From an uncultured virus (IMG/VR IMGVR_UViG_3300044653_000122) (taxonomy: Duplodnaviria; Heunggongvirae; Uroviricota; Caudoviricetes): a DNA stretch of 64,000 nt. The translations under genes and the position numbers were made by a program. The stretch is taken from IMG/VR virus record IMGVR_UViG_3300044653_000122; one strand, given 5' to 3'. The notes beneath the pieces were generated by a model. That model ran no database searches and was not told the origin of the DNA. It saw nothing but the letters and a program-made list of their open reading frames with translations. This document shows positions 893-57,936 of this stretch, in pieces (the stretch's first letter is position 1; each line of letters begins with the position of its first letter).

Positions 893-3373
893 TCAGTCAG
901 CCCCTTTCAGGTTGCAGACGGGGTACAAGCGGTGGGCGACCCGTGCGATGTTCTCAGACTCCAGAACCCCAAGAACGGAGTCCAAATCCTTGTAAACGTG
1001 CGCGCATTCGTCCAACGGAATGTGGCGGTGGTTGGAGACGATGCCCTCGATCTGGACGCCGTCGAACGTCCTCTTGACCGTGTTCATTTCCTCGTCGATG
1101 GCTTCCTGCCTGTGTTCCAGCTTCCGCTTGGCCTCCCCGCGGGCCATGATGCGCCCGCTCCCGTGGTTGACGGAGCACGCGGTCTTGTAGGCCCCCGCCT
1201 GACCGAAGAGGATGGCCGCACCCTCGTACATCGAGCCCGGGATGAGGCACGGATGGCCCGTCTTCTCCCACTGGGTACCAGCGAGGTCCGGGTGCCCGGC
1301 CGGGAACGCCCTCGTGGCGCCCTTCCTGTGGACGAAGCCCTTCTTGGTCGTCCCATCGGGTAGAACGAGAGTCTCCTCCTGGACGAGGTTGTGGCTGATC
1401 TCGTAGTAGACGTTGACATCCGCCTGGAAGATGTCCCGGGTCGCCGCCCGCACGCCGTCCACGATGATGTGACGGTTGGCCACGGCGAAGTTCGCCGCCG
1501 AGTTGTGGTGAGCCCAATACTCCTTGCCGAGGGGCTCGTCAGCACGGAGCCAGGAGTCGTCTCGGCGGTTCGAGGGCAGGCCACGGAGCTTAGCTCCGGC
1601 GTGGAAGAAGTAATCAGCCGTCTGCCAGCCATACCCACGAGAGCCACAGTGGACCATGATATAGACTTTGCCCGTGTCGCGGTCGACCTGCATCTCCACG
1701 AAATGATTGCCCCCGCCGACTGATCCAAGCTGGCCATTGACGCTCTTGTACGCCTTGTCGATCTTGGTGAGGTCGGTCGTCTCGGGGACGGGGATGTACT
1801 GGCGCTCACAGAGCTTCGCGTCGACCCCGAGGGCCTTGGCCCCATACCGAAGGATCTCGTCCGTCTTCGACTTGTTGAAAACGGGCATGAGTTCCGGTCG
1901 TGAGTGACCCTTCCCGGTCGCAATACGCTTCTCAACCTCGTTGACCCAGCGACGGCGCTCGTACTTGCTCTTCACGGAGCCTGCGTTGAGATCAGCTTCC
2001 ATGTAGAGGACCCCGCAGTTGTGGACAAATACACCTGCACTGAGTGCGAAGTTTGCGTACTTCTCGACAGTCAGGCAGTAGACATCAGCAGTGCGCTCGA
2101 TGGCGCGCACTGCAACAACCTTGTGGTTGTTGTGTCCAGTTACAATGTGGTGTGAGAGACCCTTCGCGCCAAAACACTCACGTCCACAGTGCGGGCAATT
2201 GAGGACCGTATGCTTCGCTCGAAGAGCTTCGAGTCGAAGCTGACGTTTGCTATTGGGCTTGACGCGGCCTCGATTTCTGATGCCGATGGCACGCGATGTC
2301 GCTCGACCCTTCTCACTCTGGTTGTATTTGACCAGACTGCCCTTGTTCCGCTGGCCGACTCCTGCACGATGATCCTTGTAGCCCCCTCGCGCGTTCACTT
2401 TTTTGTTCGTTTCTGCCATCGAGTTCCTACGGCGCTCGCGAAACGCAGGGTCGGCTTGAAGTCGGGTCATGTTTGCGGATCCCATGGCCGAGTACATCTC
2501 AGGATACAATTTGTGAGCCTTTGCGCCCCACGTCTCACCACGCATCAGCCGCTCTTTCGCCGTCCTTGAATGCAGGAGGAAGTGATCATGCTGATCCATC
2601 TCGACCAGGAAGCGGGGGTCGTCATTTCGCTTGTCCCGGTTCGGGTTGGCTGGGTTGAAGATGTCGTGGTGGACGACACGGGGCCAGATTGGCACGTATC
2701 CGTGAAATTCCCTGAATGAGACCCGGTACATTCTCTCGGTAGAGTTGTCTGCTGGATGCCGGACATTGCAATAACCGTCCTCATACGTTCTATAGAGGGG
2801 CATGAGGGAGGCGCCCTCCATAAGGGCACCAGCTTCACAGTAGGTGCCATCGCGCAACATGAATTCGTGATCTGGCGTAACGCAGATCGTCTTTCCGTTG
2901 TCCAGATCCACTTCCACGAGCTTGGCGTTAGTACGAATCTTGCGTGGACTGTGAGCTTTTCCGGCGGTCACTCGTCCGGCCGGCGTCATCGAATAGACGT
3001 AGAACTCACCCCCCTTGCCGTACTGCTTGACCAGCTCTGTAAAACTCATTTCACGCCCATCAACAAGGGGGACCTCGGTCTCCTCAGTGAAACAGGAGAT
3101 GTCGTAGCCGGACGCGCCCTGGATGATCGTGTCCTCGGTGACGATGACCGATCCGATGGGGACGCCGAAGCCGACATGTGCGTCCGGCATCAGATAGGCG
3201 CCGATCACGCCAGGAAACGAAGCGCCATCCACGATCTGCTTCCAAGCTTTCTCCTCAGAAGAAGCGTACAGGTCGTCTGAAAAGAAGGCGTGGACGTCCA
3301 CCTTCATCTCCCCCGTCTTCGGGAGGACGTAGTGGCCGTCGCTGATTCTCTGGACTGCGTACTTGAAGCTCAT
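893..3373 (-). CDS. rtcB: RtcB RNA 3'-phosphate/5'-OH ligase, intein-containing
   Basis: motifs MPDAHVGFG, GYDIS-C-G, GSVGGGNHFVE, VHCGSRG, HN, HRKGAT, PGSM, NHGSGR, DE..YKD. Confidence 0.95.
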   Translation of the reverse strand: MSFKYAVQRISDGHYVLPKTGEMKVDVHAFFSDDLYASSEEKAWKQIVDGASFPGVIGAYLMPDAHVGFGVPIGSVIVTEDTIIQGASGYDISCFTEETEVPLVDGREMSFTELVKQYGKGGEFYVYSMTPAGRVTAGKAHSPRKIRTNAKLVEVDLDNGKTICVTPDHEFMLRDGTYCEAGALMEGASLMPLYRTYEDGYCNVRHPADNSTERMYRVSFREFHGYVPIWPRVVHHDIFNPANPNRDKRNDDPRFLVEMDQHDHFLLHSRTAKERLMRGETWGAKAHKLYPEMYSAMGSANMTRLQADPAFRERRRNSMAETNKKVNARGGYKDHRAGVGQRNKGSLVKYNQSEKGRATSRAIGIRNRGRVKPNSKRQLRLEALRAKHTVLNCPHCGRECFGAKGLSHHIVTGHNNHKVVAVRAIERTADVYCLTVEKYANFALSAGVFVHNCGVLYMEADLNAGSVKSKYERRRWVNEVEKRIATGKGHSRPELMPVFNKSKTDEILRYGAKALGVDAKLCERQYIPVPETTDLTKIDKAYKSVNGQLGSVGGGNHFVEMQVDRDTGKVYIMVHCGSRGYGWQTADYFFHAGAKLRGLPSNRRDDSWLRADEPLGKEYWAHHNSAANFAVANRHIIVDGVRAATRDIFQADVNVYYEISHNLVQEETLVLPDGTTKKGFVHRKGATRAFPAGHPDLAGTQWEKTGHPCLIPGSMYEGAAILFGQAGAYKTACSVNHGSGRIMARGEAKRKLEHRQEAIDEEMNTVKRTFDGVQIEGIVSNHRHIPLDECAHVYKDLDSVLGVLESENIARVAHRLYPVCNLKGAD
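2018..3094 (-). mobile_element. intein (~359 aa) with internal endonuclease-like region
   Basis: begins CFTEET, block B VTPDHEF, ends VYCLTVEKYANFALSAGVFVHN followed by Cys(+1). Confidence 0.93.
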
Positions 3374-7597: not shown

Positions 7598-9967
7598 ATG
7601 GCACACACGACAAGTTCGTTCAAGGTGGCGACCAACCTGCACCTCGTCCGCCACACGATTTCGCAAGACAAGGCACCCCCGGCCAAGCCGGTGGAGATCC
7701 CCACCGATCACATCGCGATCTTCGACTGCTCTGGCTCGATGGCCTGGGATCTTCCCAAGATCCGCAGCCAGATGAAGAAGAAGCTCCCCAAGATGCTGAA
7801 GAAGGAGGACACCTTCTCGGCGATCTGGTTCAGCGGGCGCGGCCAGTGCGGCATCCTCCTGGAGAAGGAGCCCGTAGCGACCCTCACGGACCTCGCGACC
7901 GTGGAGAAGGCCATCGACCGCTGGCTGACCCCCAACGGTCTCACGGGCTTCAAGGACCCCCTGGAGAAGGCGGTGGGCTTGGCGGAGAAGCTCGGCGGCA
8001 AGGGTCGCGTCACCTCTCTCATGTTCCTGTCCGACGGCTGCGACAACCAGTGGCCGCGCGCCGACATCCTCAAGGTGATGGAGAAGCTCGGGCCCAAGGT
8101 CTCCTCGACCACGATCGTCGAGTACGGCTACTACGCCGATCGTCCCCTCCTGACCGCGATGGCGGAGAAGGCCGGCGGGTCGCTGATCTTCGCCGAGGAC
8201 TTCGACCGCTACGAGCCCGCCTTCGAGGGCATCCTCACGAAGAAGGTCTCGGGCGGCAAGCGTATCGAGGTCGCCGTCAAGGGGGATCCCGTCGGAGGGA
8301 TCGCCTACGCTCTCGTGGACGGAGACCTCGTGACCTTCGCGGCTTCCTCTGGCACCATCGCGGTCCCGGAGGATCTCAAGGAGGTCTTCTACCTGTCCCC
8401 ATCGTCCATCGGTGAGACCCGCTCGGACATCCACACGCTCTCGAAGAGCGAGGCGGATCCGAAGTCCGAGGTGATGGACTCCTTCGCAGTCGGCGCCACC
8501 TATGCTGCCGTCAGCCTTTTCGCCGTCCGCATGAAGCCGGACGTCGTCTTCCCGCTCCTCAAGGCGCTCGGCGATGTGAAGCTCATCGAACAGTTCGCCA
8601 ACTGTTTCGGCAAGCAGAAGTACTCCACGTTCATGGACGACGCCAAGAGCCTCGCGTTCGGGGCGGCCAAGCGCTTCGAGAAGGGCTGGGATCCGAACAA
8701 GGTCCCCCGCGACGACGCCTTCACCATCCTGCACGTGCTGGAGCTGCTCCAGACCGACTTCAAGGCCCGCGTCCTCCTCGACGACCCCAACTTCAAGTAC
8801 TCGAAGATCGGTCGTGGCCGCGTCGATGTGAGCGCCGACCTCACCGAGGCCGAGCTGGAGGAGCTACGCAAGCTCACCGACGCCCTCTCCAAGGAGAAGG
8901 ACGTCACGAAGATCAAGGAGCTGAACGGCAAGATCGCCGCCTTCACCGAGAACAAGAACGAGACGCTCAAGTTCGTCGGGACCCCCCAGCCCGACGGCTA
9001 TCCCATCCTCAAGCTGACGTTCAACGAGGACCGGCCCAACGTCTCGATCCTCACGAAGCGTCCAGGGACCATCGACCTCTCGAAACGCCTCAAGGACGCC
9101 CCCAACAAGAACATCCCGGCGACCTTCGAGACCTACGTCTACCGCAACTACGCCCTCATCAAGGACGGCCTCGTCAACGTCGAGCGACTCCCCGTGCGCG
9201 TGTCGGCCGAGACCTACACGAAACTCACCAAGGAGGGGGTCCACGACGCTCTCGGCCGCACGCCAGCCGCGGGAGGCGAGACGGTCGACCTCGTGATCGA
9301 CCTCAAGGCCCTGCCGGTCATCAACCGCCAGATGGTCAAGGCCGTGAGCGCCAAGGTCTTCTTCAACGTCCAGTACGAGCTGGTACGCGCCCAGTGCGCC
9401 CAGAAGGTCTTCAACTCCTACGCGAAGGAGTTGGGCCTGGAGAAGAAGGTTGCGGGCTTCGTCGAGAAGTACGGCGAGGACGGCACCAAGTGGCTCAAGG
9501 AGCAGGGCATCGGCGACGGCTACCAGCCGCCGCACACGAAGCAGACCGAGTCCACGGACTTCTACGTGGGCAAGGAGCTGACGGTCACCCTGGCCAAGCT
9601 GGGCAAGCTCCCGAGCCTCAAGGAAGCCAAGGAGCAGCTCAACAAGGGCAAGCTGAACGCCCCTGGCGCGCTCATGGCGGAGACCATCAAGGAGGTCGAG
9701 GCCTACATGGCGTCCTCGGCGTACACGGGCGCCGCCAACAAGGACCAGGCGATCCTCGCCTGGCTGGAGACCCACAAGAAGGCGGCGACCGAGAAGTGCC
9801 GCAAGCTCATCTTCGAGATCGCCCAGACCACCTTCGCGCTCATCGTCGGCCAGGTCTGGTTCACGGAGTTCTCCTCGATCGACGAGAACTCGATGGACCT
9901 CGACGTCGGCGGCGGTCAGAAGATCGCCTGCAAGGCCGAGATGCGCGACATCGAGATCAAAATCTGA
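7598..9967 (+). CDS. vWA domain protein
   Basis: DCSGSM, LTGF, FLSDG; strong SD and strong codon bias. Confidence 0.85.
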   Translation: MAHTTSSFKVATNLHLVRHTISQDKAPPAKPVEIPTDHIAIFDCSGSMAWDLPKIRSQMKKKLPKMLKKEDTFSAIWFSGRGQCGILLEKEPVATLTDLATVEKAIDRWLTPNGLTGFKDPLEKAVGLAEKLGGKGRVTSLMFLSDGCDNQWPRADILKVMEKLGPKVSSTTIVEYGYYADRPLLTAMAEKAGGSLIFAEDFDRYEPAFEGILTKKVSGGKRIEVAVKGDPVGGIAYALVDGDLVTFAASSGTIAVPEDLKEVFYLSPSSIGETRSDIHTLSKSEADPKSEVMDSFAVGATYAAVSLFAVRMKPDVVFPLLKALGDVKLIEQFANCFGKQKYSTFMDDAKSLAFGAAKRFEKGWDPNKVPRDDAFTILHVLELLQTDFKARVLLDDPNFKYSKIGRGRVDVSADLTEAELEELRKLTDALSKEKDVTKIKELNGKIAAFTENKNETLKFVGTPQPDGYPILKLTFNEDRPNVSILTKRPGTIDLSKRLKDAPNKNIPATFETYVYRNYALIKDGLVNVERLPVRVSAETYTKLTKEGVHDALGRTPAAGGETVDLVIDLKALPVINRQMVKAVSAKVFFNVQYELVRAQCAQKVFNSYAKELGLEKKVAGFVEKYGEDGTKWLKEQGIGDGYQPPHTKQTESTDFYVGKELTVTLAKLGKLPSLKEAKEQLNKGKLNAPGALMAETIKEVEAYMASSAYTGAANKDQAILAWLETHKKAATEKCRKLIFEIAQTTFALIVGQVWFTEFSSIDENSMDLDVGGGQKIACKAEMRDIEIKI

Positions 9968-14686: not shown

Positions 14687-14786
14687 TCCTGGGGATGGGG
14701 ATCGAACCCATATGCCTCCCGGCCACAGAGGCTCAGCGCGGGAGCACTGAGCCCGTGTGTGTGTCTTCCTGTTCCACCACCCCAGG
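14687..14786 (-). ncRNA. tRNA-like RNA with elongated anticodon arm
   Basis: acceptor CCTGGGG/CCCCAGG, Leu-like D arm, T arm, inserted GGCTCAG/CTGAGCC helix. Confidence 0.7.
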
Positions 14787-14787
14787 G

Positions 14788-14862
14788 TGTTCGCGGGGGG
14801 ATTCGAACCCCCATTCGACCGATTTTAAGGTGGTTGCCTTTTCCAATTTAGGCTACGCGAAC
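14788..14862 (-). tRNA. tRNA-Leu(TAA), short variable loop, weak anticodon stem
   Basis: loop CTTAAAA; two stem mismatches. Confidence 0.7.
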
Positions 14863-14876
14863 ATTGTCACCTTTTG

Positions 14877-15568: not shown

Positions 15569-15674
15569 GTGATCCTCATCTTCATCTGGGGGTTGGTGCG
15601 AAGGCGAGGGGTGGGCCGTACAGCCCTCGCAGCCAGACTCCTGCATTGGTCGGCGCCTGAGCCTGTCTTCGCGG

Positions 15675-16014
15675 TGGAGATGCCGGGAATCGAACCCGGG
15701 TCCTAAGAGCATTCCGAACACCCTCATCCACATGCTTGGACGCCGTATCCCCGGCGACTGAGTTCGCGGATTCGGCCGCGACCTAGCCCTCCTGTTCCTC
15801 TCGTCGTAGAGCCCGGTGACCCAGCTCTACGACCAGCCCTGGTGGTTGACGACTCCTTCGCCGCTAGGACGACCCAGCGAGGAATCGGCTTTCAGGCCGC
15901 AGCCTGGAAAGCGTTGTCGTTGTCGTTGGCGACTATGACATACTCGGTTGAACGGGCCGAGCGCCGTTGCATGCGGGCAGTTCTTGTTTCTCCCAGTCGA
16001 AACCTGTCATCCCC
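15675..16014 (-). ncRNA. ssrA: tmRNA, tag peptide ANDNDNAFQAAA* (15892-15930)
   Basis: 5' GGGGATGAC..TTCGAC, 3' GGTTCGATTCCCGGCATCTCCA, G3:U70, resume context ATAGTC-GCC. Confidence 0.95.
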
Positions 16015-21390: not shown

Positions 21391-21408
21391 ATGGTGTACT
21401 AGGTGACG

Positions 21409-21795
21409 ATGGAGCCCGAAGAGAACGACCCGATGGTCCAGTACTTTGTCGTGAAGGAGTCCCTGGGGATGTCCCCTGGGAAGCTCGGCGCTCAGGTCGC
21501 CCACGCCGAGATGCTCTTCATGCTGGAGGTCTACACGTGGGCGGTCCCCGATGTGCAGCCCCCGAAGTACAAGACCGTCGAGGAATGGCTCAAGACAAGC
21601 TACACGAAGATCCTCCTGGGGGCCTCCGACAACGAATTCGAGAAGGCCAAGACGGACGAGATTCAGCACGTCGTGGTGGTCGACCTCGGGAGGACCGAGA
21701 TCGCCGCCGGCTCGGAGACCGTCATCGGGTTCTGGCCGATGAGGAAGAGCGCCCGGTCGCGTTCCAAGGCTTTGAAGCGGCTTCGGCTGCTCTGA
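21409..21795 (+). CDS. pth2: peptidyl-tRNA hydrolase, Pth2 family
   Basis: LGMSPGKLGAQVAHA, VVDLGRTEIAAGSETVIG. Confidence 0.9.
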   Translation: MEPEENDPMVQYFVVKESLGMSPGKLGAQVAHAEMLFMLEVYTWAVPDVQPPKYKTVEEWLKTSYTKILLGASDNEFEKAKTDEIQHVVVVDLGRTEIAAGSETVIGFWPMRKSARSRSKALKRLRLL

Positions 21796-30436: not shown

Positions 30437-31603
30437 TCACTCGACGCTGACGATGACGCCCGCGCCGACCGTCTTGCTACCCTCGCGGACTGCGAACCGC
30501 ATGCCGGGCTCCAAGCCGATGGGCACCATCAACTCCAACGAGACCTGTGCGTGGTCCCCAGGGTTGATCATCTTGTTCTCGCCGAAGCCCGTCACCGTGC
30601 CGGTGACATCGGTCGTGCCGAAGAAGAACTGGGGCTTGTATCCCGGGAAGATTGGCGTGTGCCGACCACCCTCCTCCTTCGGAATCACGAACAGCTCGGC
30701 CAGGGCCTTGGCGTGAGGTTGCACGGAGCCAGGGGCGATGAGCACCTGACCACGAACCACCTCGTCCCGGGCGACGCCGCGGAGGAGCAGACCGCAGTTC
30801 TCACCCGCACGTGCCTCAGGCTGGTCCTTGTGGAACATCTGGATGCTCGTGCACACGACCTGACGGGGTTTGGAGTCCGCCTCCACGAGCCCGACGATCT
30901 CGACGGTGGACCCCGCCTTGAGGACCCCACGCTCGATACGCCCAGTGACGACGGTGCCACGACCAGGGATCGTGTGCACGCCCTCGATGGGCATCATGAA
31001 CGGCGCGTCGTAGTCCCGCTTCGGGTCGGGGAAGTGCCGGTCCATCGTGGCGACCAGCTCTGCGATGCAGGCCCCATCCTCTGCGGGGTTCTTGAGCGCC
31101 TTGAGCGCCGAACCCTTGACCACCGGGCAGTCCTTGTAACCGTGCAGCTCCAGGCGCTCGACCGTCTCCATGACGACCAGCTCCAACAGCTCGGGATCGG
31201 AGATGTCCACCTTGTTGATGAACACGACGATCCTCTGAACCCCGACCTGGCGAGCGAGCAGGATGTGTTCCTTCGTCTGGTACTGGGGTCCCTGGCTACC
31301 GTCGACCAAAAGCACGGCTCCGTCCATCTGGGCGGCCCCCGTGATCATGTTCTTGATGTAGTCAGCGTGCCCAGGGCAATCGATGTGGGCGTAGTGCCTC
31401 GTGGCACTCTCGTACTCGACGTGGGACACGTTGATGGTCACCGTCTTCGACTCGTCGCGGACCGTGCCACCCTTGGCGATGTCCGCATAGGACTTGACCT
31501 TCGCGAGCTTCGAGTACGCTTGTACGGCCAGGAGGGCTGCCGTCAGCGTGGTCTTGCCGTGGTCGACGTGCCCGATCGTGCCCACATTTACGTGCGTTTT
31601 CAC
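30437..31603 (-). CDS. tuf: elongation factor Tu
   Basis: [48 protein letters not shown]. Confidence 0.97.
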
Positions 31604-32078: not shown

Positions 32079-32733
32079 CTATCCACGGTCTTCTCCTTTC
32101 TTTGGAGTGTTATGGCTAAGGGCGAGCACCACACGGTCGACCCCAATGGCCCACCCGATGCCCTCTTTGTAGCGGCCCCCACCAGCAATTTGCTTTTGGG
32201 CGCCGAGCGTTTCAACTTCGGCCTCGAACCCGTCCTCGACGTAGTACGTGAGGCCACGCTTGACCGCAGGGTTGAACTTGTAGGGAACCTGGAGACGATC
32301 GAGGCAAGCTCGGAGCGAGCCCTCAGCCTCCTCGGTGTCCCCCTTGCCCTGACCCCCTAGGATCTCGACGCCGAACTGCGTGAACTCCCGGTACCGGCCC
32401 GCCTGTGGGCGCTCGTAGCGGTAGCAGCGCTGGCAGTAGAAGATTTGGTAGGGCCGCTTGACGCTCCGGCTCCACTCGTCGTTCCAGAGGCGTTGGATGA
32501 GTGCGGTTGCCTCAGGGATGAAGACACACCGGACGATCACCCTTGTCCCGGAAGGCCCACATCTGGTTGACGATCTCAGGACCCGCCTTCTGTACGAAGG
32601 TCTCCTGATCCCACAGGGACGGGAGGATGACCTCCTCGAACCCACGGTCCGTGAGCGTCTCCCGAATCGTTGACGTGACCTTGGTGAAGAGCTTCGCTTC
32701 GGTGCCAGTGATGACGCGGGTGCCACGGATCAT
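32079..32733 (-). CDS. minimal HisRS-like catalytic domain, split by a +1 frameshift near 32515
   Basis: RGT..GFEEV..P; PEAT; YRYERPQAGRYREFTQFGVE; RGLTYY; GGGRY; GWAIGVDR. Confidence 0.85.
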
Positions 32734-33721: not shown

Positions 33722-33849
33722 GGGGAATGTGCCGGGGTTAGCCGGACGCTTGTGAGGACCGCAGAGGTTGCGGGGCGCCTCTCCTCCCCTCTTGCGAGGG
33801 TTCTTGAGACGCCCGAGATGCGATCCTGGTTGAGCTGCGTCACATCCCC
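33722..33849 (-). ncRNA. module RNA 1 (shared module, no tRNA arms)
   Basis: CTCGGG..CCCCGC..ACAAGC inside GGGGATGTG/CACATTCCCC helix. Confidence 0.65.
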
Positions 33850-33872
33850 GTAAGGTGCTCAACCCTGTAAAC

Positions 33873-34006
33873 TGGAGGCGGGTCTTGGAGTCGAACCAAG
33901 CAAGCTTGTAAGCACGCGGAGTTTGCGGGGCCCCCGTGGAGGCCCGAGTGATGCGCGCTGTCGATTTCTCTTATGAGGAGAAGCGGGACCCACGTCCCTA
34001 CCCGCC
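33873..34006 (-). ncRNA. module RNA 2: tRNA shell (CAT loop, CCA) with module in variable arm
   Basis: GGCGGGT/ACCCGCC-T-CCA; TTCTC-CTCATAA-GAGAA. Confidence 0.8.
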
Positions 34007-34015
34007 ATGATATTT

Positions 34016-34151
34016 GAAGACACCCGAGGTGCAACCCTGGTCACGCCTTACGGCGAGCAGTGGGGATCGAACCCACATCCTTCGGTTTCACGTACCAACG
34101 CTCATCCAGTTGAGCTATGCTTGTTAGGGCTACGAGGTGCGGGGTGCCTTC
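34016..34151 (-). ncRNA. module RNA 3: module encloses D/anticodon(GTG)/T arms
   Basis: GAAGGCACCCCGC...CTCGGGTGTCTTC terminal helix. Confidence 0.8.
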
Positions 34152-34153
34152 AG

Positions 34154-34282
34154 AGCCGGATCCAGGAGTCGAACCTGGCGAGCTTGTTAGCGCGCTTTGG
34201 GGCGGGGTCCCCGTGGAGACCCGAGTAGTGCACGCTGTGGTTTTACCTGGGAAAGGTAGCGGGACCCACGTCCCTATCCGGC
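34154..34282 (-). ncRNA. module RNA 4: tRNA shell (TCC-like loop) with module in variable arm
   Basis: GCCGGAT/ATCCGGC acceptor, T arm. Confidence 0.8.
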
Positions 34283-34323
34283 ATGATCTCGAACTTGTCC
34301 TACTTCGAAGGCGAGGACTTGCC

Positions 34324-34438
34324 TGGGGGCGGACTCTGGAGTCGAACCAGAGGCTTGTGTGCACGTTGGGGTGCGGGGCCCCCGTAGAGGCCCGAGGAAA
34401 ACGCGCAGTGAAAGTGGGACCCACGTCCCAAGTCCGCC
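34324..34438 (-). ncRNA. module RNA 5: tRNA shell with CCA, module replaces the anticodon arm
   Basis: GGCGGAC/GTCCGCC-C-CCA. Confidence 0.8.
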
Positions 34439-34447
34439 GAAATGTTA

Positions 34448-34573
34448 GGCGACGCCCGAGTTGCAACCCTGGTGTGTGGTAGCAGCAGGAATCGAACCTG
34501 CCCTGTCTCGTTATCAGCGAGATGCTCAACCAGTGAGCTTTGCTTGTGAGGGTAGCGGGGGCGGGGCGCCGCC
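34448..34573 (-). ncRNA. module RNA 6: module encloses D/anticodon(GAT)/T arms
   Basis: GGCGGCGCCCCGC...CTCGGGCGTCGCC. Confidence 0.8.
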
Positions 34574-34575
34574 AG

Positions 34576-34708
34576 CGCCGGATGAAGGAGTCGAACCTTC
34601 CTAGCTTGTAAGCACGCGTGGTTGCGGGGTCCCCTAAGAGACCCGAGTGGTGCGCGCTGGGAATGGCTTCCTTAACAGGGAAGTGACCTCCCCGAGGTCT
34701 AATCCGGC
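34576..34708 (-). ncRNA. module RNA 7: tRNA shell (GTT loop) with module in variable arm
   Basis: GCCGGAT/ATCCGGC; CTTCC-CTGTTAA-GGAAG. Confidence 0.8.
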
Positions 34709-34717
34709 ATGATGTTA

Positions 34718-34844
34718 GGAGACGCCCGAGATGCAACCCTGTTGTGTGTGCAGCGGGTGTCGAAACCCGCAACCCACGGCTTGAGAGGCCGTTGCTCTAC
34801 CATTGAGCTATGCTTGTGAGGGCTGCGAGGGGCGGGGCGCCTCC
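34718..34844 (-). ncRNA. module RNA 8: module encloses D/anticodon(CTC)/T arms
   Basis: GGAGGCGCCCCGC...CTCGGGCGTCTCC. Confidence 0.8.
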
Positions 34845-34846
34845 AG

Positions 34847-34980
34847 GGCCGACTGTGGGAATCGAACCCACTATGCTTGTATGCGCGTTGTGGGGCGGGG
34901 TCCCCGTGGAGACCCGAGATGTACGCGCAGGTGAATTGCTTCCTGTTCAGGGAAGTGCCCAACCGGAGGGCTTAGTCGGC
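34847..34980 (-). ncRNA. module RNA 9: tRNA shell (GAA loop) with module in variable arm
   Basis: GCCGACT/AGTCGGC; CTTCC-CTGAACA-GGAAG. Confidence 0.8.
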
Positions 34981-35017
34981 GAAACGTACGAGACTGGAAC
35001 TACTGAGAGAAGATTTC

Positions 35018-35163
35018 GGTCACGCCCGAGATTGACGCCTGTGTGCTGTATGTTCACTTTCGATGTGAATGCCTTACCGTTAGGCTACATCTCCCGAAGG
35101 AGGTGATGGGACTCGAACCCACATTTTGTGCTTGTAAGGCGTCGTGCTTGGCGGGGCGCGACC
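35018..35163 (-). ncRNA. module RNA 10: module encloses a permuted tRNA (T arm, TTCG-capped acceptor, D arm, anticodon arm)
   Basis: GGTCGCGCCCCGC...CTCGGGCGTGACC. Confidence 0.8.
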
Positions 35164-35166
35164 TAG

Positions 35167-35311
35167 CTGGGGGTCTAGGATTCGAACCTAGAAGAGCTTG
35201 TTTGAACCGCTTTTTGGCGGGGTCCCCGTGGAGACCCGAGATGCGATCCAGGGTTTTGCTTTCGCAACGTGGTTTGGAATCACGCTGGCCTGCCATCGGC
35301 CAATACCCCCA
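35167..35311 (-). ncRNA. module RNA 11: tRNA shell (CCA loop) with module in variable arm
   Basis: TGGGGGT/ACCCCCA acceptor, T arm. Confidence 0.8.
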
Positions 35312-35390
35312 ATGGGTTGTCGAGGAGTGACCCCGACGAGGAGGAGAGGTTACGTCTTGCCGGAACGACCGTCAAGATTTTTTGTGGGGG

Positions 35391-35972
35391 TCAGATTCGA
35401 ATCGTACCCCCGGGGCTGACCTGGTAGGACAGGCGCGCCCCCTTGCCGACGAACTCCTTGACGGAGTGTGCAACGTAAGCGGAAACGACCGCGAGGAAGG
35501 GGAGGTGCTCCCCGTTCTCACACGTCGGAGCGCCCTGGGCGTCCTCTTCGTCGATGACGAACGACTCGTCCCACGCTACGCGGCCGAAGTTGCCGTTGGC
35601 ATCCACAGCCGCATGAAGGCAGGGGATCTTGGCTTTGCGGACGAAGGTCTGGATGACACGCCGAGAGGCAGCGTTGTCCAGACAATCGACCACAAGGTCC
35701 GCTCCCCCGAGGAGCTGTTCAGCGTTGTCCGAAACGAGCTTGTTCGAGTTCGTCTGGAGCTTGACGCCGAAGAGGAGATCCATCGCTCCGGCGAGAGCCA
35801 GCACCTTCGGCTTACCTACGCCCGGCTTGCCGTGGAACTGGCTCTGGATGTTCTTCGCCTCCACACGGTCGAAGTCGATGACCTTGAGGGCCGCCTTGAC
35901 GTTGCGGAGGAGCATGACGGCCTGGGACCCGAGGGCACCCACGCCGACGAATACGATGGTCTTCATCTTCAT
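35391..35972 (-). CDS. ThiF/E1-like adenylyltransferase
   Basis: GVGALGS, IDFDRVEAKNIQSQ, GKPKV, VVDCLDN; candidate Cys in PTCE. Confidence 0.9.
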   Translation of the reverse strand: MKMKTIVFVGVGALGSQAVMLLRNVKAALKVIDFDRVEAKNIQSQFHGKPGVGKPKVLALAGAMDLLFGVKLQTNSNKLVSDNAEQLLGGADLVVDCLDNAASRRVIQTFVRKAKIPCLHAAVDANGNFGRVAWDESFVIDEEDAQGAPTCENGEHLPFLAVVSAYVAHSVKEFVGKGARLSYQVSPGGTIRI

Positions 35973-36033
35973 CTCCCTCGGGACATCACCAAGCCCCTCT
36001 GGTTACTACACCAGAGGGGCCAGCGAAATCCTC

Positions 36034-36306
36034 TCAACCATAGGCAGTCTTGGGTCTCACGAAAATGCGGTTGTGGTCCGCCTGCCCCGGCGCCGGATTG
36101 GCCGGCGCGTCGAAGCGGTCGACCATGAAGTTCGTGAGGTCGACGTTGGGATCCGCCACCACACCGGGAACGGATCCCGTGCGGATGGCCTCGGCCGCCC
36201 ACCCCTTGATGTCACCGTCCCCCGCCTGGTAGTGCACGGGGTCCGGCAGCTCGAAGTTCTGCCCGTTGTAGGTGATGTTCACCCGGGCCTCGTGAGGCTG
36301 GATCAT
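36034..36306 (-). CDS. putative ubiquitin-like protein
   Basis: 90 aa, beta-grasp-like pattern, ends RIFVRPKTAYG; lies between JAB and E1. Confidence 0.65.
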   Translation of the reverse strand: MIQPHEARVNITYNGQNFELPDPVHYQAGDGDIKGWAAEAIRTGSVPGVVADPNVDLTNFMVDRFDAPANPAPGQADHNRIFVRPKTAYG

Positions 36307-36710
36307 GGCTGCATCTCCTTCTGATCTGTTACCGGCTGCGAGTGCCGGCGAAGTTCCTCGACCCAAGGCGGCTCGTCGTAGACCTTCGAGACGCTGTAGT
36401 CGTACCGATTGGGACCGACCCACCGGACCACCACAAGACGGTCCATGCTGGCGATCCACCACTTGTATCGTCGCCCGAGCCCGCTCTCGCAGGCCTCGTA
36501 CGTCGTGATGTCTTCCCAAGAAGGGCCCGGCCAACCGAGGCCAGGGTGGCTGTGCGCCTGCCCCGACATGGTGAGCCGGTTCTCCCAGTAGACATCCCAG
36601 AGCTTGGGGCTGTCAGGGAGCGCGACGACATTTCGGTTGGTTGGCAGGTGCCAGTAAACAACCTGCGTCTCATCGGACCCGATGACAACCCCTGCTTCGC
36701 GCATGTTCAT
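36303..36710 (-). CDS. JAB/JAMM metallo-isopeptidase
   Basis: N-terminal E (REAG), HSHP....PSWED. Confidence 0.85.
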   Translation of the reverse strand: MNMREAGVVIGSDETQVVYWHLPTNRNVVALPDSPKLWDVYWENRLTMSGQAHSHPGLGWPGPSWEDITTYEACESGLGRRYKWWIASMDRLVVVRWVGPNRYDYSVSKVYDEPPWVEELRRHSQPVTDQKEMQP

Positions 36711-36719
36711 GTCGACCCC

Positions 36720-37697
36720 CTAATCCTCGAAGTCATCATGGTCCTCGAAGTCATCGTCTCCCGCGTGACGGTTGACGACGAGCACGCGATCCCGATCGGC
36801 TGCGAGGATGACGGCCGGCAGAGATTCCAGGGTGAACTTGGTGTCACCCACCTCTCCAGTCGCGTGATTGACGAGACAGATGCCTGCGTTGATGATCCGA
36901 AGAGTCGTCGAATCGCAGGTGGAAACGTACTGGCGACGTGCGAGACGGTAGGTCACGACCATCTCGTTGCGTTGGTACCCCTTCTTGTGGTCGAGGTACT
37001 CGGCCCCGCCGAGCGCCAGAGCAGCGCGAGCCGCTTGGGCGAAGTCGAGTTGGGCCATGGCACGACGACCCTCCCCCGTGCCAAGCTGCTGAGCGATCTG
37101 TTGTCTTCGCTCTTCAGCCAGCCGCTTGGCCTCTTCCTCCTGACGCCTGCGCTCCTCTACGGCACGCCGACGCTCGGTCTCCGTCCGCATGAACGACTCC
37201 ATGCGGAAGGCTGCATCGAGAGCAGGGAGGACGTTGGGAATGCCTCCAACGTCAGCCTTGCGGTCGAAATAGGCCTGGAGAACATCCGTTTCCGGACCCA
37301 AAGGAAAGTCCTGCGTCTTGTAGACGAGGGGACCATCCTCGAAGGGGCGACCCGCCACGACCCGCACAAAGCGATCGAGGCTGGGGTCGAGAAGAGCAAC
37401 CGGCTCGGAGTAGCCGATGATCTTTGCAGGGTCGGGATCCACGTGCACAGCGTCGGGAACGATGCGGTCCCCCACGAGGTACCCACGGATCTCATGACCG
37501 AGAATATCGGTTTGGGGGTCCGAAGCCTTGTCCAGGAACGCCTTGCGCCCGTTGAGCTTGAAGTTGTACCAGCCGACCTCCTTCGGAAGTCGACCGTCAA
37601 TGTTCCAGGTACGAGCACCCGACCGGAGATCCCTCCCTCCCAGCCAGGGCGAGACCAAGGCCTCATTGCCCGTCTGTAGAAGGTCTCTCCACGACAT
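36720..37697 (-). CDS. hypothetical protein with possible C-terminal E2-like domain
   Basis: coiled coil then beta-rich domain with AGICL..D.KFTLESL; operon context. Confidence 0.6.
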   Translation of the reverse strand: MSWRDLLQTGNEALVSPWLGGRDLRSGARTWNIDGRLPKEVGWYNFKLNGRKAFLDKASDPQTDILGHEIRGYLVGDRIVPDAVHVDPDPAKIIGYSEPVALLDPSLDRFVRVVAGRPFEDGPLVYKTQDFPLGPETDVLQAYFDRKADVGGIPNVLPALDAAFRMESFMRTETERRRAVEERRRQEEEAKRLAEERRQQIAQQLGTGEGRRAMAQLDFAQAARAALALGGAEYLDHKKGYQRNEMVVTYRLARRQYVSTCDSTTLRIINAGICLVNHATGEVGDTKFTLESLPAVILAADRDRVLVVNRHAGDDDFEDHDDFED

Positions 37698-37757
37698 GCT
37701 CATCTCCATCTGGTGGAGGAAAAACCCCACCACCTTCACAGATGGTGGGGTTCCCTG

Positions 37758-39683
37758 TTACGCCGCCTTCGACGACACGGGCACGGAAGCCCAGGCCGGC
37801 TTCTTGAGCAGGTCCGTCTTGAGGATCGTGTCCACGAGGGTCACGCGCGGAACTGCCACCTGCCCGGTGGCCTTGCCGACCGGAGTCGCCGCGATCAGGG
37901 CGCGGATCGTACGCGGGATGGCGTACGGGTCCGCTGCACCTCCGGTTGCGACCTGACCGAAGATACGCTGATCGACCGAGAAGCACGGGATGCCGAGGAC
38001 AGCAGCCGCGTTGGGGACGCACTTGTAGTTCTCGCCCTGGAGTTCGAGGAACCCGAACGCCACGGGGTTGAGCTTCGAGTCGCGGATGGCCGCCACGAGA
38101 CCGTGAGTCTCGCGCTGACCACCGTCACCAACCCAGACCATGATGCAGTCCTCGTCCGGTGCCGGCTTACGCCGGTCCGTGAGCGCCGAACGAACACCCG
38201 CGCTGTGGTCGGTCCCACCCCCTGCGGCGATACCGCGGAAGGCGTTCTCGACGCCAGCCTTGCTCGCGTGCTTGATCTCAACGACACGGCCCGCCGTGTT
38301 GAAGACCACCGTCACCGTCTTGTCCAGGGGGAAGCCCTGGAGGAACTGCGCGATGTAGGTCATCGACGCCTGGATCGACGCGCTCATCGAGCCCGAGATG
38401 TCGATGATGAAGTACACGAAAAGGCCCTTGATGACCTCCGCCACCTGCTTCTGGAGCGCGGTGTCGGCAGCCTGCTGGAGCTTATCCTTGCCCTCCTTCG
38501 ACTTCATGCGGAGCGCGATGTTGGCCGCCCGCATGTTCTCGGCTTCCCGAAGAGCCTTGTCGAGGCGCTCACGGTAGGTCTGGACCTGGAGCAGACCCAG
38601 CTCTTCGATCGTCGGAGCCAGGTTGATCATCTCCGCGTTGGAGATGCACCCCGACTCGATCGCGGCACCCATGATCGCCCTCGTGAGGCCGACACCCTTC
38701 GGCAACATGGCCGAGAGGCGGTTCCACTTCGGGCGGTCCTTGACGACACGTTCGCAGACCTGCTCCTCGGTCAGGCCGTCCCACGTCTCCGCGGCAGCGA
38801 CCTTCTCGTTGAGAGCGAGCTTGCGACGGCCGTCGCTGGACTGCACCTGCTTCCACCGAAGCGTCTGGTAGAACTTCGGCGTGAGCGGGACATACCGAGC
38901 CTGGCAGGCGAGGGAGATGACACTCCAACGCGCACCCGACTTGATGAGCCCTTCGAGCAGCTTGGGGTTACGCTCGCGGTAGGCGAGCCAGCGGTTCACC
39001 GCCTTGGGCCAGCGACCCAGCTCCGGGCGCCGAGCGGACTTGCCAAAGCCCAGCTCGTGGTTGATCTTGGCGATCTGCGGCAGCGAGAGCAGCTCGCGAG
39101 CGCGGACCAGGAGCTTGGCGTTGAAGCCGCCCTTCTCCTTGTCGAGAAGGAACATGGCCTCGCCGACCTCACGGAAGTCGTCGTCGAAGAACGCAAGCTT
39201 GCCGTTCTCCACGACCTCCTGCCCGCAGCGGCTCTGCACGAGCATGAACGCAGCGAGCACGACCTTGAGGTCCCGGTGCTCCTGCCCGAATGCGAACGAA
39301 GCCCAACGGGCCGCGAACTCGTTGTCCAGCTTCCAGACCTCGGCGACCTGCTGGTAGAGCCAGACCGCGACCTCCGTGAAGAAGCCGGGCTTGCGATACT
39401 CGCCGACGCGAGTCGTACCGTTCATGATCGTCTTCTTGTCCGCCGCGAACTCGCCGGCCTTGACCCAGGCCGTCTTCTTGCCGACCTTGCTTCCGAGGTA
39501 AAGGACACGCTTACGCGCGTCTCCCTCGCCCTCGTACTTGGCCTTCGCGAAGGCCCACTTGACGCCGACCACCGAGGTCGGGTCCGGCGTGACCATGCCG
39601 GGGCGGTTGTGAACGCAGTGGTCCACGTAAGGCGTGAGCGACGCGATGATGCGCTCCGCCGGTCCAAGATTCTCGTTCGCCAT
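37758..39683 (-). CDS. Ro60/TROVE-like helical domain + vWA protein
   Basis: long helical region then IIDISGSM, GGTD, VGDG; start placed at MANENL after GGTGTA motif. Confidence 0.65.
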   Translation of the reverse strand: MANENLGPAERIIASLTPYVDHCVHNRPGMVTPDPTSVVGVKWAFAKAKYEGEGDARKRVLYLGSKVGKKTAWVKAGEFAADKKTIMNGTTRVGEYRKPGFFTEVAVWLYQQVAEVWKLDNEFAARWASFAFGQEHRDLKVVLAAFMLVQSRCGQEVVENGKLAFFDDDFREVGEAMFLLDKEKGGFNAKLLVRARELLSLPQIAKINHELGFGKSARRPELGRWPKAVNRWLAYRERNPKLLEGLIKSGARWSVISLACQARYVPLTPKFYQTLRWKQVQSSDGRRKLALNEKVAAAETWDGLTEEQVCERVVKDRPKWNRLSAMLPKGVGLTRAIMGAAIESGCISNAEMINLAPTIEELGLLQVQTYRERLDKALREAENMRAANIALRMKSKEGKDKLQQAADTALQKQVAEVIKGLFVYFIIDISGSMSASIQASMTYIAQFLQGFPLDKTVTVVFNTAGRVVEIKHASKAGVENAFRGIAAGGGTDHSAGVRSALTDRRKPAPDEDCIMVWVGDGGQRETHGLVAAIRDSKLNPVAFGFLELQGENYKCVPNAAAVLGIPCFSVDQRIFGQVATGGAADPYAIPRTIRALIAATPVGKATGQVAVPRVTLVDTILKTDLLKKPAWASVPVSSKAA

Positions 39684-39801
39684 GTTCTGATCCGATCTCG
39701 GCGACACACCTTCGCCGTTTCCTAGTAATACACCGCCGTGGTGCGGGATCCCCGAAGAGATCCGAGATGGCGATGCAGAGGTCCCGAGGAAGCCGGGAAC
39801 C

Positions 39802-39878
39802 TGGTCGGGGAGGGGGGATTCGAACCCCCAACAACGAGCACCCAAAGCTCGTGCACTACCGGGTTGTGCTACCCCCCG
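39802..39878 (-). tRNA. tRNA-Pro(TGG)
   Basis: CGAGC-TTTGGGT-GCTCG, CCA. Confidence 0.92.
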
Positions 39879-39905
39879 AAGTTCTTCTTGTGGACCGAGC
39901 AGGAC

Positions 39906-40175
39906 ATGGATCCGCTCACGCCCCGCGTCGTCCGCCGCTACCTTGCCTTCAAACACCAGCCGAAGGAAACCAAGGAACACAAAGTGGAACGGGTACGGGA
40001 CCTCATCCGCCAGCACACCGGCCTCTCGAAGGGTCAGGCGGAAGCCATCGCCGACGCCCATGTCCGAGGACGTGAGGTCGAGCGGTTGGCCATCCAGAAG
40101 TCCTGGCCCATCGAGCACGGGGCCATCAAAGGCCCGTCCGGTACGCTGGAGCTGTCGAAGCTACCGAAAGATTGA
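39906..40175 (+). CDS. hypothetical protein (MDPLTPRVVRRY N-terminus)
   Basis: shared N-terminal motif; TCTTGT upstream. Confidence 0.65.
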   Translation: MDPLTPRVVRRYLAFKHQPKETKEHKVERVRDLIRQHTGLSKGQAEAIADAHVRGREVERLAIQKSWPIEHGAIKGPSGTLELSKLPKD

Positions 40176-40176
40176 A

Positions 40177-40362
40177 GGATCGCGCCCGAGGTTGTGCAGC
40201 AGTTGTGCCTTTTCAGGACAGCTTCCATTTGCTGTTGCGTCTTCCATTCCGCCACTGGCCCATTTTGGGGGTCCGAAGACCCTTGTGGGCCAGCCTGGAC
40301 TCGAACCAGGAATCCCCTTGCGGGGTTGCTTGTGTGCTTCACAGGATTGCGGGGCGCGATCC
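40177..40362 (-). ncRNA. module RNA 12: module encloses a permuted tRNA
   Basis: GGATCGCGCCCCGC..ACAAGC..T arm..CTGGCCC/GGGCCAG..D arm..CTCGGGCGCGATCC. Confidence 0.8.
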
Positions 40363-57378: not shown

Positions 57379-57936
57379 ATGTCTCTACTCCAAGTGCGCC
57401 ACTTTCCGGACCCGATCCTTAAGAAGGTCTGCGAGCCCGTGCATGAGATCGACGACGGCCTGCGCATGTTCCTCGTGGACATGGCCGAGACGATGATCGC
57501 CCAGAAGGGGGTAGGTCTCGCGGCCCCTCAAGTTGGCCGCTCGCAGCGGTTCTTCGTGGTCGACATCTGGTGGCCCTCCGACCAGGACGACAAGACCCTG
57601 ATTTTCATCAATCCGAAGATCACAGCGTACGAAGGCTCACAGCGTGGGCTGGAGGGGTGTCTTTCGATCCCCGGCGTCTTCGAGCACGTCACCCGGGCAC
57701 AGAAGATTCGTGTGGTGGCGCAGGATATCAACAGCCAGGTCTTCGAGCTGGACGCAGAGGGATTTCTTGCGGTCGCCATTCAACACGAGTTCGACCACCT
57801 GAACGGCGTGCTGACGTTTGACCGTCTCGGCCCCCTCGCGAGAAAGATGGCCACGAAGAAGTACGATCAGGCCAGCGAGGCACGTGCCCGGGACCGTAAG
57901 GGTGGTCCTCAGCTCTCGGTTGCGAAGAGACCCTAG
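57379..57936 (+). CDS. def: peptide deformylase
   Basis: GVGLAAPQVG, EGCLSIP, QHEFDHLNG. Confidence 0.96.
   Translation: MSLLQVRHFPDPILKKVCEPVHEIDDGLRMFLVDMAETMIAQKGVGLAAPQVGRSQRFFVVDIWWPSDQDDKTLIFINPKITAYEGSQRGLEGCLSIPGVFEHVTRAQKIRVVAQDINSQVFELDAEGFLAVAIQHEFDHLNGVLTFDRLGPLARKMATKKYDQASEARARDRKGGPQLSVAKRP

Follow-up and report, generated by a model that had tools for sequence, protein, structure and literature searches.

A family of tRNA-like RNAs with a shared two-helix module beside the gene of a predicted Ro60-like protein in an uncultured huge phage

Ro60 proteins accompanied by transfer RNA (tRNA)-like Y RNAs are known in bacteria and in some phages (PMC4201824), a solved structure exists for a phage Ro60 that has two simple Y-like RNAs (PMC12135203), and TROVE proteins with a tRNA-like partner occur in a few jumbo phages (PMC7824862). 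Here we describe a locus in a 64,000-nucleotide stretch of DNA from an uncultured virus of the Caudoviricetes (IMG/VR record IMGVR_UViG_3300044653_000122), referred to below as the window, in which twelve small RNA units carry one common module on tRNA-like bodies of several kinds. The units lie on both sides of the gene of a 642-amino-acid protein with a predicted Ro60-like fold (Table 1). A full-text literature search, with supplements outside its scope, returned no tRNA cloverleaf with a Ro-type stem as its variable arm and no array of this size.

An earlier note on this DNA had reported eleven tandem minus-strand units and one further unit containing CCCCGC, CTCGGG and ACAAGC, and the motif counts bear this out. 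Eleven units lie within 33722-35311 and one within 40177-40362, and all twelve are encoded on the minus strand. Across these two stretches that strand has the three motifs 14, 14 and 12 times, the plus strand 1, 0 and 0 times. The ordered pattern CTCGGG-N10-40-CCCCGC-N10-20-ACAAGC has seven matches in the window, all on the minus strand within 33748-35240, where none was expected from 100 shuffles. The reverse order, CCCCGC followed by ACAAGC and CTCGGG, gives four matches against none expected, one of them spurious and bridging two adjacent units. The longer-bodied units 35163-35018 and 40362-40177 were picked up by a helix matcher, and the same two helices were recovered in every unit by unconstrained folding. 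No ribozyme family of Rfam matched between 33400 and 40500, even at E values as high as 10.

The module is about 50 nucleotides long and consists of helix Y (7-8 base pairs), an asymmetric internal loop with CUC, and helix X (7-12 base pairs), with ACAAG(C) just 3' of helix Y. Its alpha strand runs from one strand of helix Y through 2-5 nucleotides and CUC into helix X. Its beta strand comprises the other strand of helix X, 5-10 unpaired nucleotides (starting C-G-C in the window), the second strand of helix Y, 1-2 nucleotides and ACAAGC. At its base, helix X pairs the GGG of CTCGGG with the CCC of CCCCGC, and the bulged C of the earlier note is the first unpaired base of the beta strand. A pseudoknot pairing of CUC(G) with CAAG was considered and dropped: one position is mismatched, and U14 stays unchanged in ACACGC variants.

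Three topologies can be distinguished: type A (A1-A6, with A7 as a degenerate member), permuted type B (B1 and B5) and non-permuted type B (B2, B3 and B4). Type A units have a 7-base-pair acceptor stem, a small D-like hairpin, usually an anticodon arm of 5 base pairs with a 7-nucleotide loop, and a canonical T arm; the module occupies the position of the variable arm, and its helix X is capped by a 4-nucleotide loop. The permuted units follow the type A design with the break moved: the helix X loop is open and the acceptor stem is capped instead (in B1 with a UUCG loop), helix X is made by the two ends of the RNA, and T arm, closed acceptor, D arm and anticodon-like hairpin follow one another along the body. 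In the non-permuted type B units the D, anticodon and T arms are well formed, only 3-4 base pairs of the acceptor stem are present, the module replaces that stem, and ACAAGCA occupies positions 1-7. These topologies explain why B2 and B3 match the Rfam tRNA model only in part and why ARAGORN calls B4 alone.

The anticodon-like loops listed in the earlier note were all located: CCA, GAA, GTT, TCC and CAT in type A units, and CTC, GAT and GTG in type B units. Two units have no anticodon arm (34438-34327 and 33872-33722). In the closest relative (locus L001), judged by eye, the loops GTT and TCC are kept and others differ, for example CCA against GTA; the counterpart of A7 there retains a full cloverleaf. 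A near-identical strain in DNA run X2 has the anticodon-like loop of A2 changed at its first base (34948; GAA to AAA), and at 35228-35230 the helix X loop of A1 reads TTAG in place of CACG with the helices intact. In two other loci, units of 97-99 nucleotides (L007, 21534-21632; L016, 11292-11388) contain helix X, CUC, helix Y and ACAAGC with no T loop, and are Y-like RNAs devoid of a tRNA-like body in related phages. An intron or split-tRNA origin of the archaeal bulge-helix-bulge type was dropped, since the transfer-messenger RNA (tmRNA) of the window points to a bacterial host and removal of the module would leave no normal tRNAs in the type B units. The proposal that type A units are recent copies of the phage's tRNAs was rejected as well, their stems being unlike those of its own tRNAs of the same anticodon.

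Conservation of the module across related phages was examined with a covariance model, R1, built from eight type A modules and their T arms. At E ≤1e-4, R1 detects six copies in the window and a further 36 spread over 17 of the 27 related loci, while A7 and an element in the leader of the Ro60-like gene (see below) score just short of this threshold. Among the 38 distinct modules of type A that the window and the 17 loci provide, 94.7% of cells pair, compared with 63.7% after shuffling and 30-50% with slid partners; the alignment of the 38 was fitted to R1 and is hence biased towards structure, and the margin is large. Changes on both sides are seen in 18 of the 19 pairs, as would be expected from the claim that the helices covary between copies, and the covariation extends across phages. 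A perfect 7/7 acceptor stem, with its 5' strand 30-60 nucleotides upstream of the module, accompanies 37 of the 38 modules, compared with 15 of 38 at shifted positions (best of three shifts). The type B design, sought with a strict matcher in 508 kilobases (kb) and with the near-duplicate loci L015, L020 and L025 omitted, gives 38 gene-strand hits, among which helix X has 36 different sequences, and none on the opposite strand. Invariant in all 38 type A modules are CUC, the A-C-A and the G of ACAAG(C), and the T loop. By folding and covariation, the units form a real, structured RNA family with interchangeable tRNA-like parts, as had been proposed.

The single bulged-C helix, given in the earlier note as the common feature of the units, holds for the window and not for the family. 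A C:G closing pair can be drawn in every copy of the window but forms in only 15 of the 38 distinct family members. In L001 the unpaired base is A (CCAGC), and in most other phages the beta loop begins with A and no G is on offer. The bulged-C helix is a lineage-specific feature and not the conserved determinant.

The units are packed tightly, in the order [A1 B1], [A2 B2], [A3 B3], A4, [A5 B4], A6, A7. All five type B units begin 1-3 nucleotides past a discriminator base, which for B5 is that of tRNA-Ile and otherwise that of a type A unit, and the next type A unit follows 8-9 nucleotides downstream of B2, B3 and B4. In L001 the pairing of units and the junction between tRNA-Ile and B5 are identical. 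The 8-9-nucleotide spacers after B2, B3 and B4 (34709-34717, 34439-34447 and 34007-34014, minus strand) are alike, reading UAACAUCAU, UAACAUUUC and AAUAUCAU; should RNase P cleave at the following unit, each would be left as a single-stranded 3' tail of a type B RNA. Between A4 and A5 the spacer (34284-34323, minus strand) contains a small hairpin (GTCCT...AGGAC) and a GTTCGAG remnant, and is perhaps the relic of a lost type B unit.

Several features of this locus recall YrlA and its partner Rsr (RF02553; PMC4201824), in which small RNAs with a long bulged stem and a tRNA-like domain also stand beside a Ro60-type gene and tandem copies are known. Here too the array adjoins the gene of a protein of Ro60-like fold, as YrlA adjoins a Ro60 orthologue. 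The YrlA order of T arm, closed acceptor stem-loop and D arm is found in two of the twelve units, B1 and B5; the ten others are not permuted. In YrlA the stem leaves the tRNA-like body at the anticodon stem, whereas the phage stem leaves it at the position of the variable arm or the acceptor. The phage locus differs further in having twelve copies and a partner without a TROVE sequence signature. None of the twelve units reaches the gathering threshold of the Rfam YrlA model (69 bits), the best being B1 with 25.8 bits at 35071-35123 (model positions 30-81, the core of T arm, closed acceptor and D arm). An assignment of the units to YrlA is not borne out by this Rfam score, and they lack the GNCGAAN0-1G motif; the likeness to YrlA drawn in the earlier note is supported by the permuted tRNA-like order in two units and by an RtcB gene in the window.

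The Thermus phage phiLo (PMC12135203; PDB 9KOP and 9L5Y) likewise encodes a Ro60 with adjacent Y-like RNAs, and 9kop is the best Foldseek match of the window's protein. Its RNAs, Yrl1 and Yrl2, are simple stem-bulge-stem structures with a CGAA motif and no tRNA-like body, two in number against twelve here, and the excerpted text describes no ubiquitin-like cassette of the sort found in the window phage. The terminal stem in the window allows a drawing with one bulged C beside a G:C pair, much like GGUCCGA of metazoan Y RNAs (Stein et al. 2005, via PMC4201824); unlike in those RNAs, the bulged C becomes A or is lost in relatives, and the conserved bases are on the other strand. On paper, the RNAs resemble Y RNAs in their proposed working yet are not members of YrlA, and may be regarded as a variant of the Ro60/Y-RNA kind.

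Type A units may also be compared with class II tRNAs, with which they share a cloverleaf and a helix between the anticodon and T arms. Class II tRNAs (tRNA-Leu, tRNA-Ser and tRNA-Tyr) have long variable arms of 10-20 nucleotides. The phage arm is about 50 nucleotides long, has two helices and conserved loops, is joined to non-canonical D arms, and also appears on permuted and acceptor-less bodies.

The 642-amino-acid protein is predicted to combine a helical N-terminal part, interrupted by a beta-rich insertion, with a C-terminal VWA domain, and Pfam recognises only VWA families in it. Its homologues form a large but closed family, with 1,508 proteins at E ≤0.001 among the candidates scored and 226 representatives at 50% identity. 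An AlphaFold model built with 43 sequences has a predicted local distance difference test (pLDDT) score of 85.9 and a predicted template modelling score of 0.82. When the whole model is used as query, Foldseek places the TROVE domain and Ro60 chains on top (9kop, E 1.5e-7; also 9nfa, 9l5y, 2i91, 1yvp and 2nvo; 525-595 columns), with matches to VWA alone ranking lower, and a second aligner gives 1yvp_A with Z 13.2 (428 aligned, root-mean-square deviation 5.5). The N-terminal 420 residues folded alone have a pLDDT of 90.2. Against 48,161 representative chains they reach Z of at least 8 only with 1yvp_A (11.5, 297 aligned), Rsr 2nvo_A (9.7) and phage phiLo 9l5y_B (9.0), all of them Ro60; the next value is 6.5. 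The MIDAS (metal ion-dependent adhesion site) residues, D429, S431, S433, T492 and D521, are invariant in the 43 sequences. On the predicted structure the fold is accepted as Ro60-like; by sequence, the protein is rejected as a recognisable member of the TROVE family.

The RNAs and the protein occur together in most of the related loci. The earlier note had suggested testing with a covariance model whether the module co-occurs with homologues of the neighbouring protein, and 23 of the 27 protein-bearing loci or their contigs do hold it; the other four are fragments. An R1 match lies within 10 kb of the protein gene in 17 of the 27 loci, and L007 has one at E 3.2e-4. In the contigs of L010, L018, L005, L025 and L026 the arrays are 12-16 kb off or at the other contig end. 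The loci with no module are L009, which is 3 kb long, and L013, L022 and L023, which are estimated to be 4-26% complete. A search of IMG/VR with the RNA pattern alone gave 64 loci, 40 of which have the protein within 10 kb. Eleven of the other 24 show no R1 match and are probably ordinary tRNAs, and 13 are confirmed by R1. Among these 13, five are on contigs already known to bear the protein, L083 has the protein 12 kb away, four are whole records without the protein and 5-68% complete, and L028, L072 and L074 lack the protein within the fetched stretch.

A related hairpin is present in the leader of the Ro60-like gene. L001 has it in the same place, with compensatory changes in both helices, and similar CUCG hairpins were seen by eye ahead of the gene in L003, L011, L012, L017, L021 and L026. 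With a strict matcher, a leader hairpin is found no more than 150 nucleotides upstream in 4 of 25 loci against 0.35 expected. There is moderate evidence, from sequence comparison, that the module is recognised by a cassette protein, as in autoregulated RNA-binding proteins. The single occurrence of GGCGAAGG in the leader was set aside as not meaningful, the same letters being found 85 times on the minus strand of this DNA.

The Ro60-like gene is the first of five genes whose order is fixed in all 24 loci with enough downstream DNA; the others encode a 339-amino-acid protein, a JAB-type peptidase, a small protein and an E1-like adenylyltransferase, and the RNA array usually follows directly after the E1 gene. 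PHROGs, PADLOC, NCBIfam and ESM Atlas gave nothing for the Ro60-like, 339-amino-acid or small proteins. The E1-like enzyme has a weak match to TcdA, and no E2-type or thiouridylase-type protein was recognised in family searches of the cassette. A C-terminal RPKTPFG followed by a variable tail, as in the small protein, is what one would expect of a ubiquitin-like modifier or sulfur carrier that a JAB peptidase trims. Judged from these genes, the cassette resembles a ubiquitin-like or sulfur-carrier system of a phage to which an RNA-binding module has been joined. It recalls Bil/Bub-type defence operons and ThiS/ThiF pairs in its E1-like enzyme, its JAB peptidase and a small protein ending in Gly with a removable tail, and differs from them in the lack of a recognised E2, in being phage-encoded, and in sharing a single cassette with an RNA array and the gene of a Ro60-like protein. 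The fixed association of a Ro60-like protein with a ubiquitin-like/E1/JAB set is new, the full-text search having returned no report of it. This cassette, the leader hairpin, the three topologies and the tight pairing of units were absent from the earlier note.

Based on these observations, we regard it as moderately probable that the locus is a strongly diverged and expanded phage version of the Ro60/Y-RNA partnership, in which the module would serve as handle and the tRNA-like bodies as interchangeable working ends. About a dozen small RNAs would be transcribed within the phage tRNA array, each with a tRNA-like body and the common module of about 50 nucleotides. The handle would be bound by a cassette protein, most likely the Ro60-like TROVE/VWA protein, which probably also binds the leader hairpin of its own mRNA and may thereby exert feedback control. 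The bodies may bring tRNA-binding partners to this protein or serve as protected tRNA look-alikes, with host tRNA-cutting (anticodon) nucleases, repair enzymes such as the phage RtcB, and modification or charging enzymes as candidate partners; this adaptor or decoy role, including the bait for anticodon nucleases put forward in the earlier note, is a hypothesis. The RNAs would be matured by the tRNA-processing enzymes of the cell. Type A acceptor stems are normal and type B units start 1-3 nucleotides past acceptor 3' ends; the packing suggests, but does not show, release by tRNA end-processing enzymes.

A number of findings weigh against this view. Searches of the PDB with the single protein and with a 43-sequence profile matched VWA proteins only and neither TROVE nor solved Ro60 chains, Foldseek with the N-terminal part alone gave nothing at E ≤0.001, and Z scores of 9-11.5 are within the range that the tool flags as uncertain for helical repeat proteins. 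The GNCGAAN0-1G motif (PMC4201824) is in none of the twelve units, the known Ro60 motif GGUCCGA is absent from them, and the conserved nucleotides are on the strand opposite to the main Ro60 contact strand in Y RNAs (PMC4201824). With a relaxed matcher the enrichment of the leader hairpin is modest (6 of 25 loci where 2.3 are expected; P about 0.02), and any of the four other conserved cassette proteins could instead be the binder. A few exact low-depth contigs in two soil metatranscriptomes include 34727-34925 and the cassette genes, the Ro60-like gene among them; these contigs show no RNA ends and possibly derive from carried-over DNA, and are a weak hint of expression only.

The choice of binder is the point at which another explanation enters. 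The RNAs may serve the ubiquitin-like/E1/JAB part or the 339-amino-acid protein, as substrates or cofactors of an E1-dependent reaction or as conjugation guides, with the module as docking site. For comparison, sulfur transfer to the tRNA-like RNAs would be a reaction of the TtuB/TtuC thiolation type. The fixed five-gene order in all 24 loci and the usual place of the array directly after E1 are in line with this, as are the RPKTPFG terminus with its variable tail, expected of a JAB-trimmed modifier, and the existence of tRNA-acting E1-like enzymes together with the weak TcdA match. However, no thiouridylase-type or E2-type protein is recognised, the leader hairpin is ahead of the Ro60-like gene, and relatives of Ro60 are the only cassette members known for binding such RNAs; we consider this explanation unlikely. 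A variant that draws on both ideas, in which E1 activates the RPKTPFG protein, type A acceptor ends accept or present this modifier much as tRNAs carry amino acids for tRNA-dependent transferases, the Ro60-like protein grips the module and the loops select targets or partners, would make the RNAs carriers or guides of a protein modifier. Type A RNAs, with open tRNA-style acceptor ends in 37 of 38 copies, are the proposed acceptors, and we think this variant very improbable.

Two further explanations dispense with a cassette partner. The module could be an element of maturation or stability, a compact pair of helices that keeps exonucleases out or steers host RNases; tRNA look-alikes would then build up as decoys, and the nearness of the genes would reflect a shared tRNA island. 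Packing like that of tRNA precursors, with five of five type B units starting 1-3 nucleotides past an acceptor 3' end, would fit, and in several contigs the array is 12-16 kb from the protein. But the invariance of single-stranded CUC and ACAAG over 38 divergent copies argues for sequence-specific recognition, and the module-like hairpin ahead of the first cassette gene and the near-complete co-occurrence where contigs are long enough also speak against it, which makes it quite unlikely. Alternatively, type A units might be functional tRNAs whose variable arm is giant and which are charged and take part in translation. They have perfect 7-base-pair acceptor stems (37 of 38), canonical T loops and 7-nucleotide anticodon loops, two units encode CCA, and three of five discriminator bases fit the anticodon identity rule. 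Yet their D arms are non-canonical (5-base-pair stems, 4-5-nucleotide loops, position 8 not U), one unit is without an anticodon arm, six are called neither by ARAGORN nor by the Rfam tRNA model (RF00005), the phage has ordinary tRNAs of the same anticodons, and the same module sits on bodies without an acceptor stem. We hold this to be the least probable of all.

The source is a huge phage with a bacterial host, as indicated by the content of the window and by its relatives. The window has a G+C content of about 60% and carries on its minus strand 54 tRNA genes and one tmRNA (ARAGORN), the latter pointing to a bacterial host; the window also has genes for translation and RNA repair (Table 1). 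Relatives of the Ro60-like protein are on IMG/VR viral contigs of up to about 500 kb, and the window's own contig is 147 kb long. RtcB homologues are 3-9 kb away from the Ro60-like gene in L002 and L011. Near-identical DNA was not found among GenBank phages; the only GenBank match at the protein level is in Virus Rctr197k (48.7% identity, annotated hypothetical), and R1 finds only a weak match (17.9 bits) on the fetched stretch of that record. ARAGORN reports at 14785-14863 (minus strand) a tRNA with a four-base anticodon (aaaa), which scores 54.9 bits with the Rfam tRNA model and could be a frameshift-suppressor-like tRNA or a mis-call. A small open reading frame at 39906-40175 (plus strand), between B5 and tRNA-Pro, has a 54.5% identical counterpart in the same place in L001 and is probably a real gene of about 90 codons.

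Table 1. RNA units, cassette genes and other features of the window. R1, covariance model of the type A module and T arm.
Feature	Coordinates	Strand	Description
A1	35167-35311	minus	Cloverleaf-like: 7-base-pair acceptor, CCA loop, extra GAAA hairpin, module at variable arm, T arm; minimum free energy fold; R1 63.8 bits; 7/7 acceptor pairs
B1	35018-35163	minus	Permuted; RNA ends form helix X; inside: ACAAGC, T arm, UUCG-closed acceptor, D arm, anticodon-like hairpin; from fold and helix matcher
A2	34847-34980	minus	Cloverleaf, GAA loop, module as variable arm; R1 91.3 bits
B2	34718-34844	minus	Module in place of acceptor stem; arms in normal order (D, anticodon with CTC, T); Rfam tRNA 45.4 bits, model positions 5-66 only
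A3	34576-34708	minus	Cloverleaf, GTT loop; R1 92.2 bits
B3	34448-34573	minus	Module in place of acceptor stem; GAT loop; Rfam tRNA 44.8 bits, model positions 4-67
A4	34324-34438	minus	Lacks anticodon arm; has acceptor stem, one hairpin, module, T arm; CCA encoded past discriminator; R1 84.6 bits
A5	34154-34282	minus	Cloverleaf, TCC loop; R1 95.4 bits
B4	34015-34152	minus	Module in place of acceptor stem; GTG loop; body called tRNA-His by ARAGORN; Rfam tRNA 43.7 bits, positions 1-71
A6	33873-34006	minus	Cloverleaf, CAT loop, CCA encoded; R1 90.0 bits
A7	33722-33872	minus	Degenerate: long helix X in module; no D, anticodon or T arms; R1 28.5 bits, E 3.2e-4
B5	40177-40362	minus	Permuted, 11-base-pair terminal helix X; begins 2 nucleotides past tRNA-Ile; syntenic copy in L001 at 8997-9158
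Leader hairpin	39729-39777	minus	Between tRNA-Pro and Ro60-like start codon; helix Y, CUC, helix X, C-GC; no ACAAGC, no T arm; R1 29.8 bits, E 1.5e-4
Ro60-like protein (predicted fold), 642 amino acids	37758-39686	minus	Helical N-terminal part with beta-rich insertion, C-terminal VWA with intact MIDAS
339-amino-acid protein	36720-37739	minus	No known family; second in cassette throughout
JAB/JAMM-type peptidase	36303-36710	minus	Pfam Prok-JAB 23.7 bits, just below cut-off of 25; HxH...S..D motif; conserved position
Small protein, about 90 amino acids	36034-36306	minus	Probably ubiquitin-like; family C-terminal RPKTPFG, then 0 to about 60 variable residues; no family match
ThiF/MoeB-type E1-like adenylyltransferase	35391-35972	minus	Pfam ThiF 81.6 bits
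RtcB RNA ligase	893-3373	minus	With intein; Pfam RtcB 275 bits, Intein_splicing 59 bits
tmRNA	15673-16014	minus	
EF-Tu	30437-31603		
Ribosomal protein L7/L12	13483-13869		
PTH2	21403-21795		
Peptide deformylase	57379-57936		
HisRS-like fragment	32079-32726		Short

Ro60 and Y RNAs are conserved from bacteria to humans. If the handle-and-body reading of the locus is right, this phage lineage would have multiplied and diversified the tRNA-like part and kept one handle. The locus also indicates that Ro60-type proteins can go undetected by sequence-based annotation. A single genome supplies up to a dozen natural variants, and dozens of related phages are available, so that a role of the tRNA-like bodies as exchangeable working ends can be put directly to the test.

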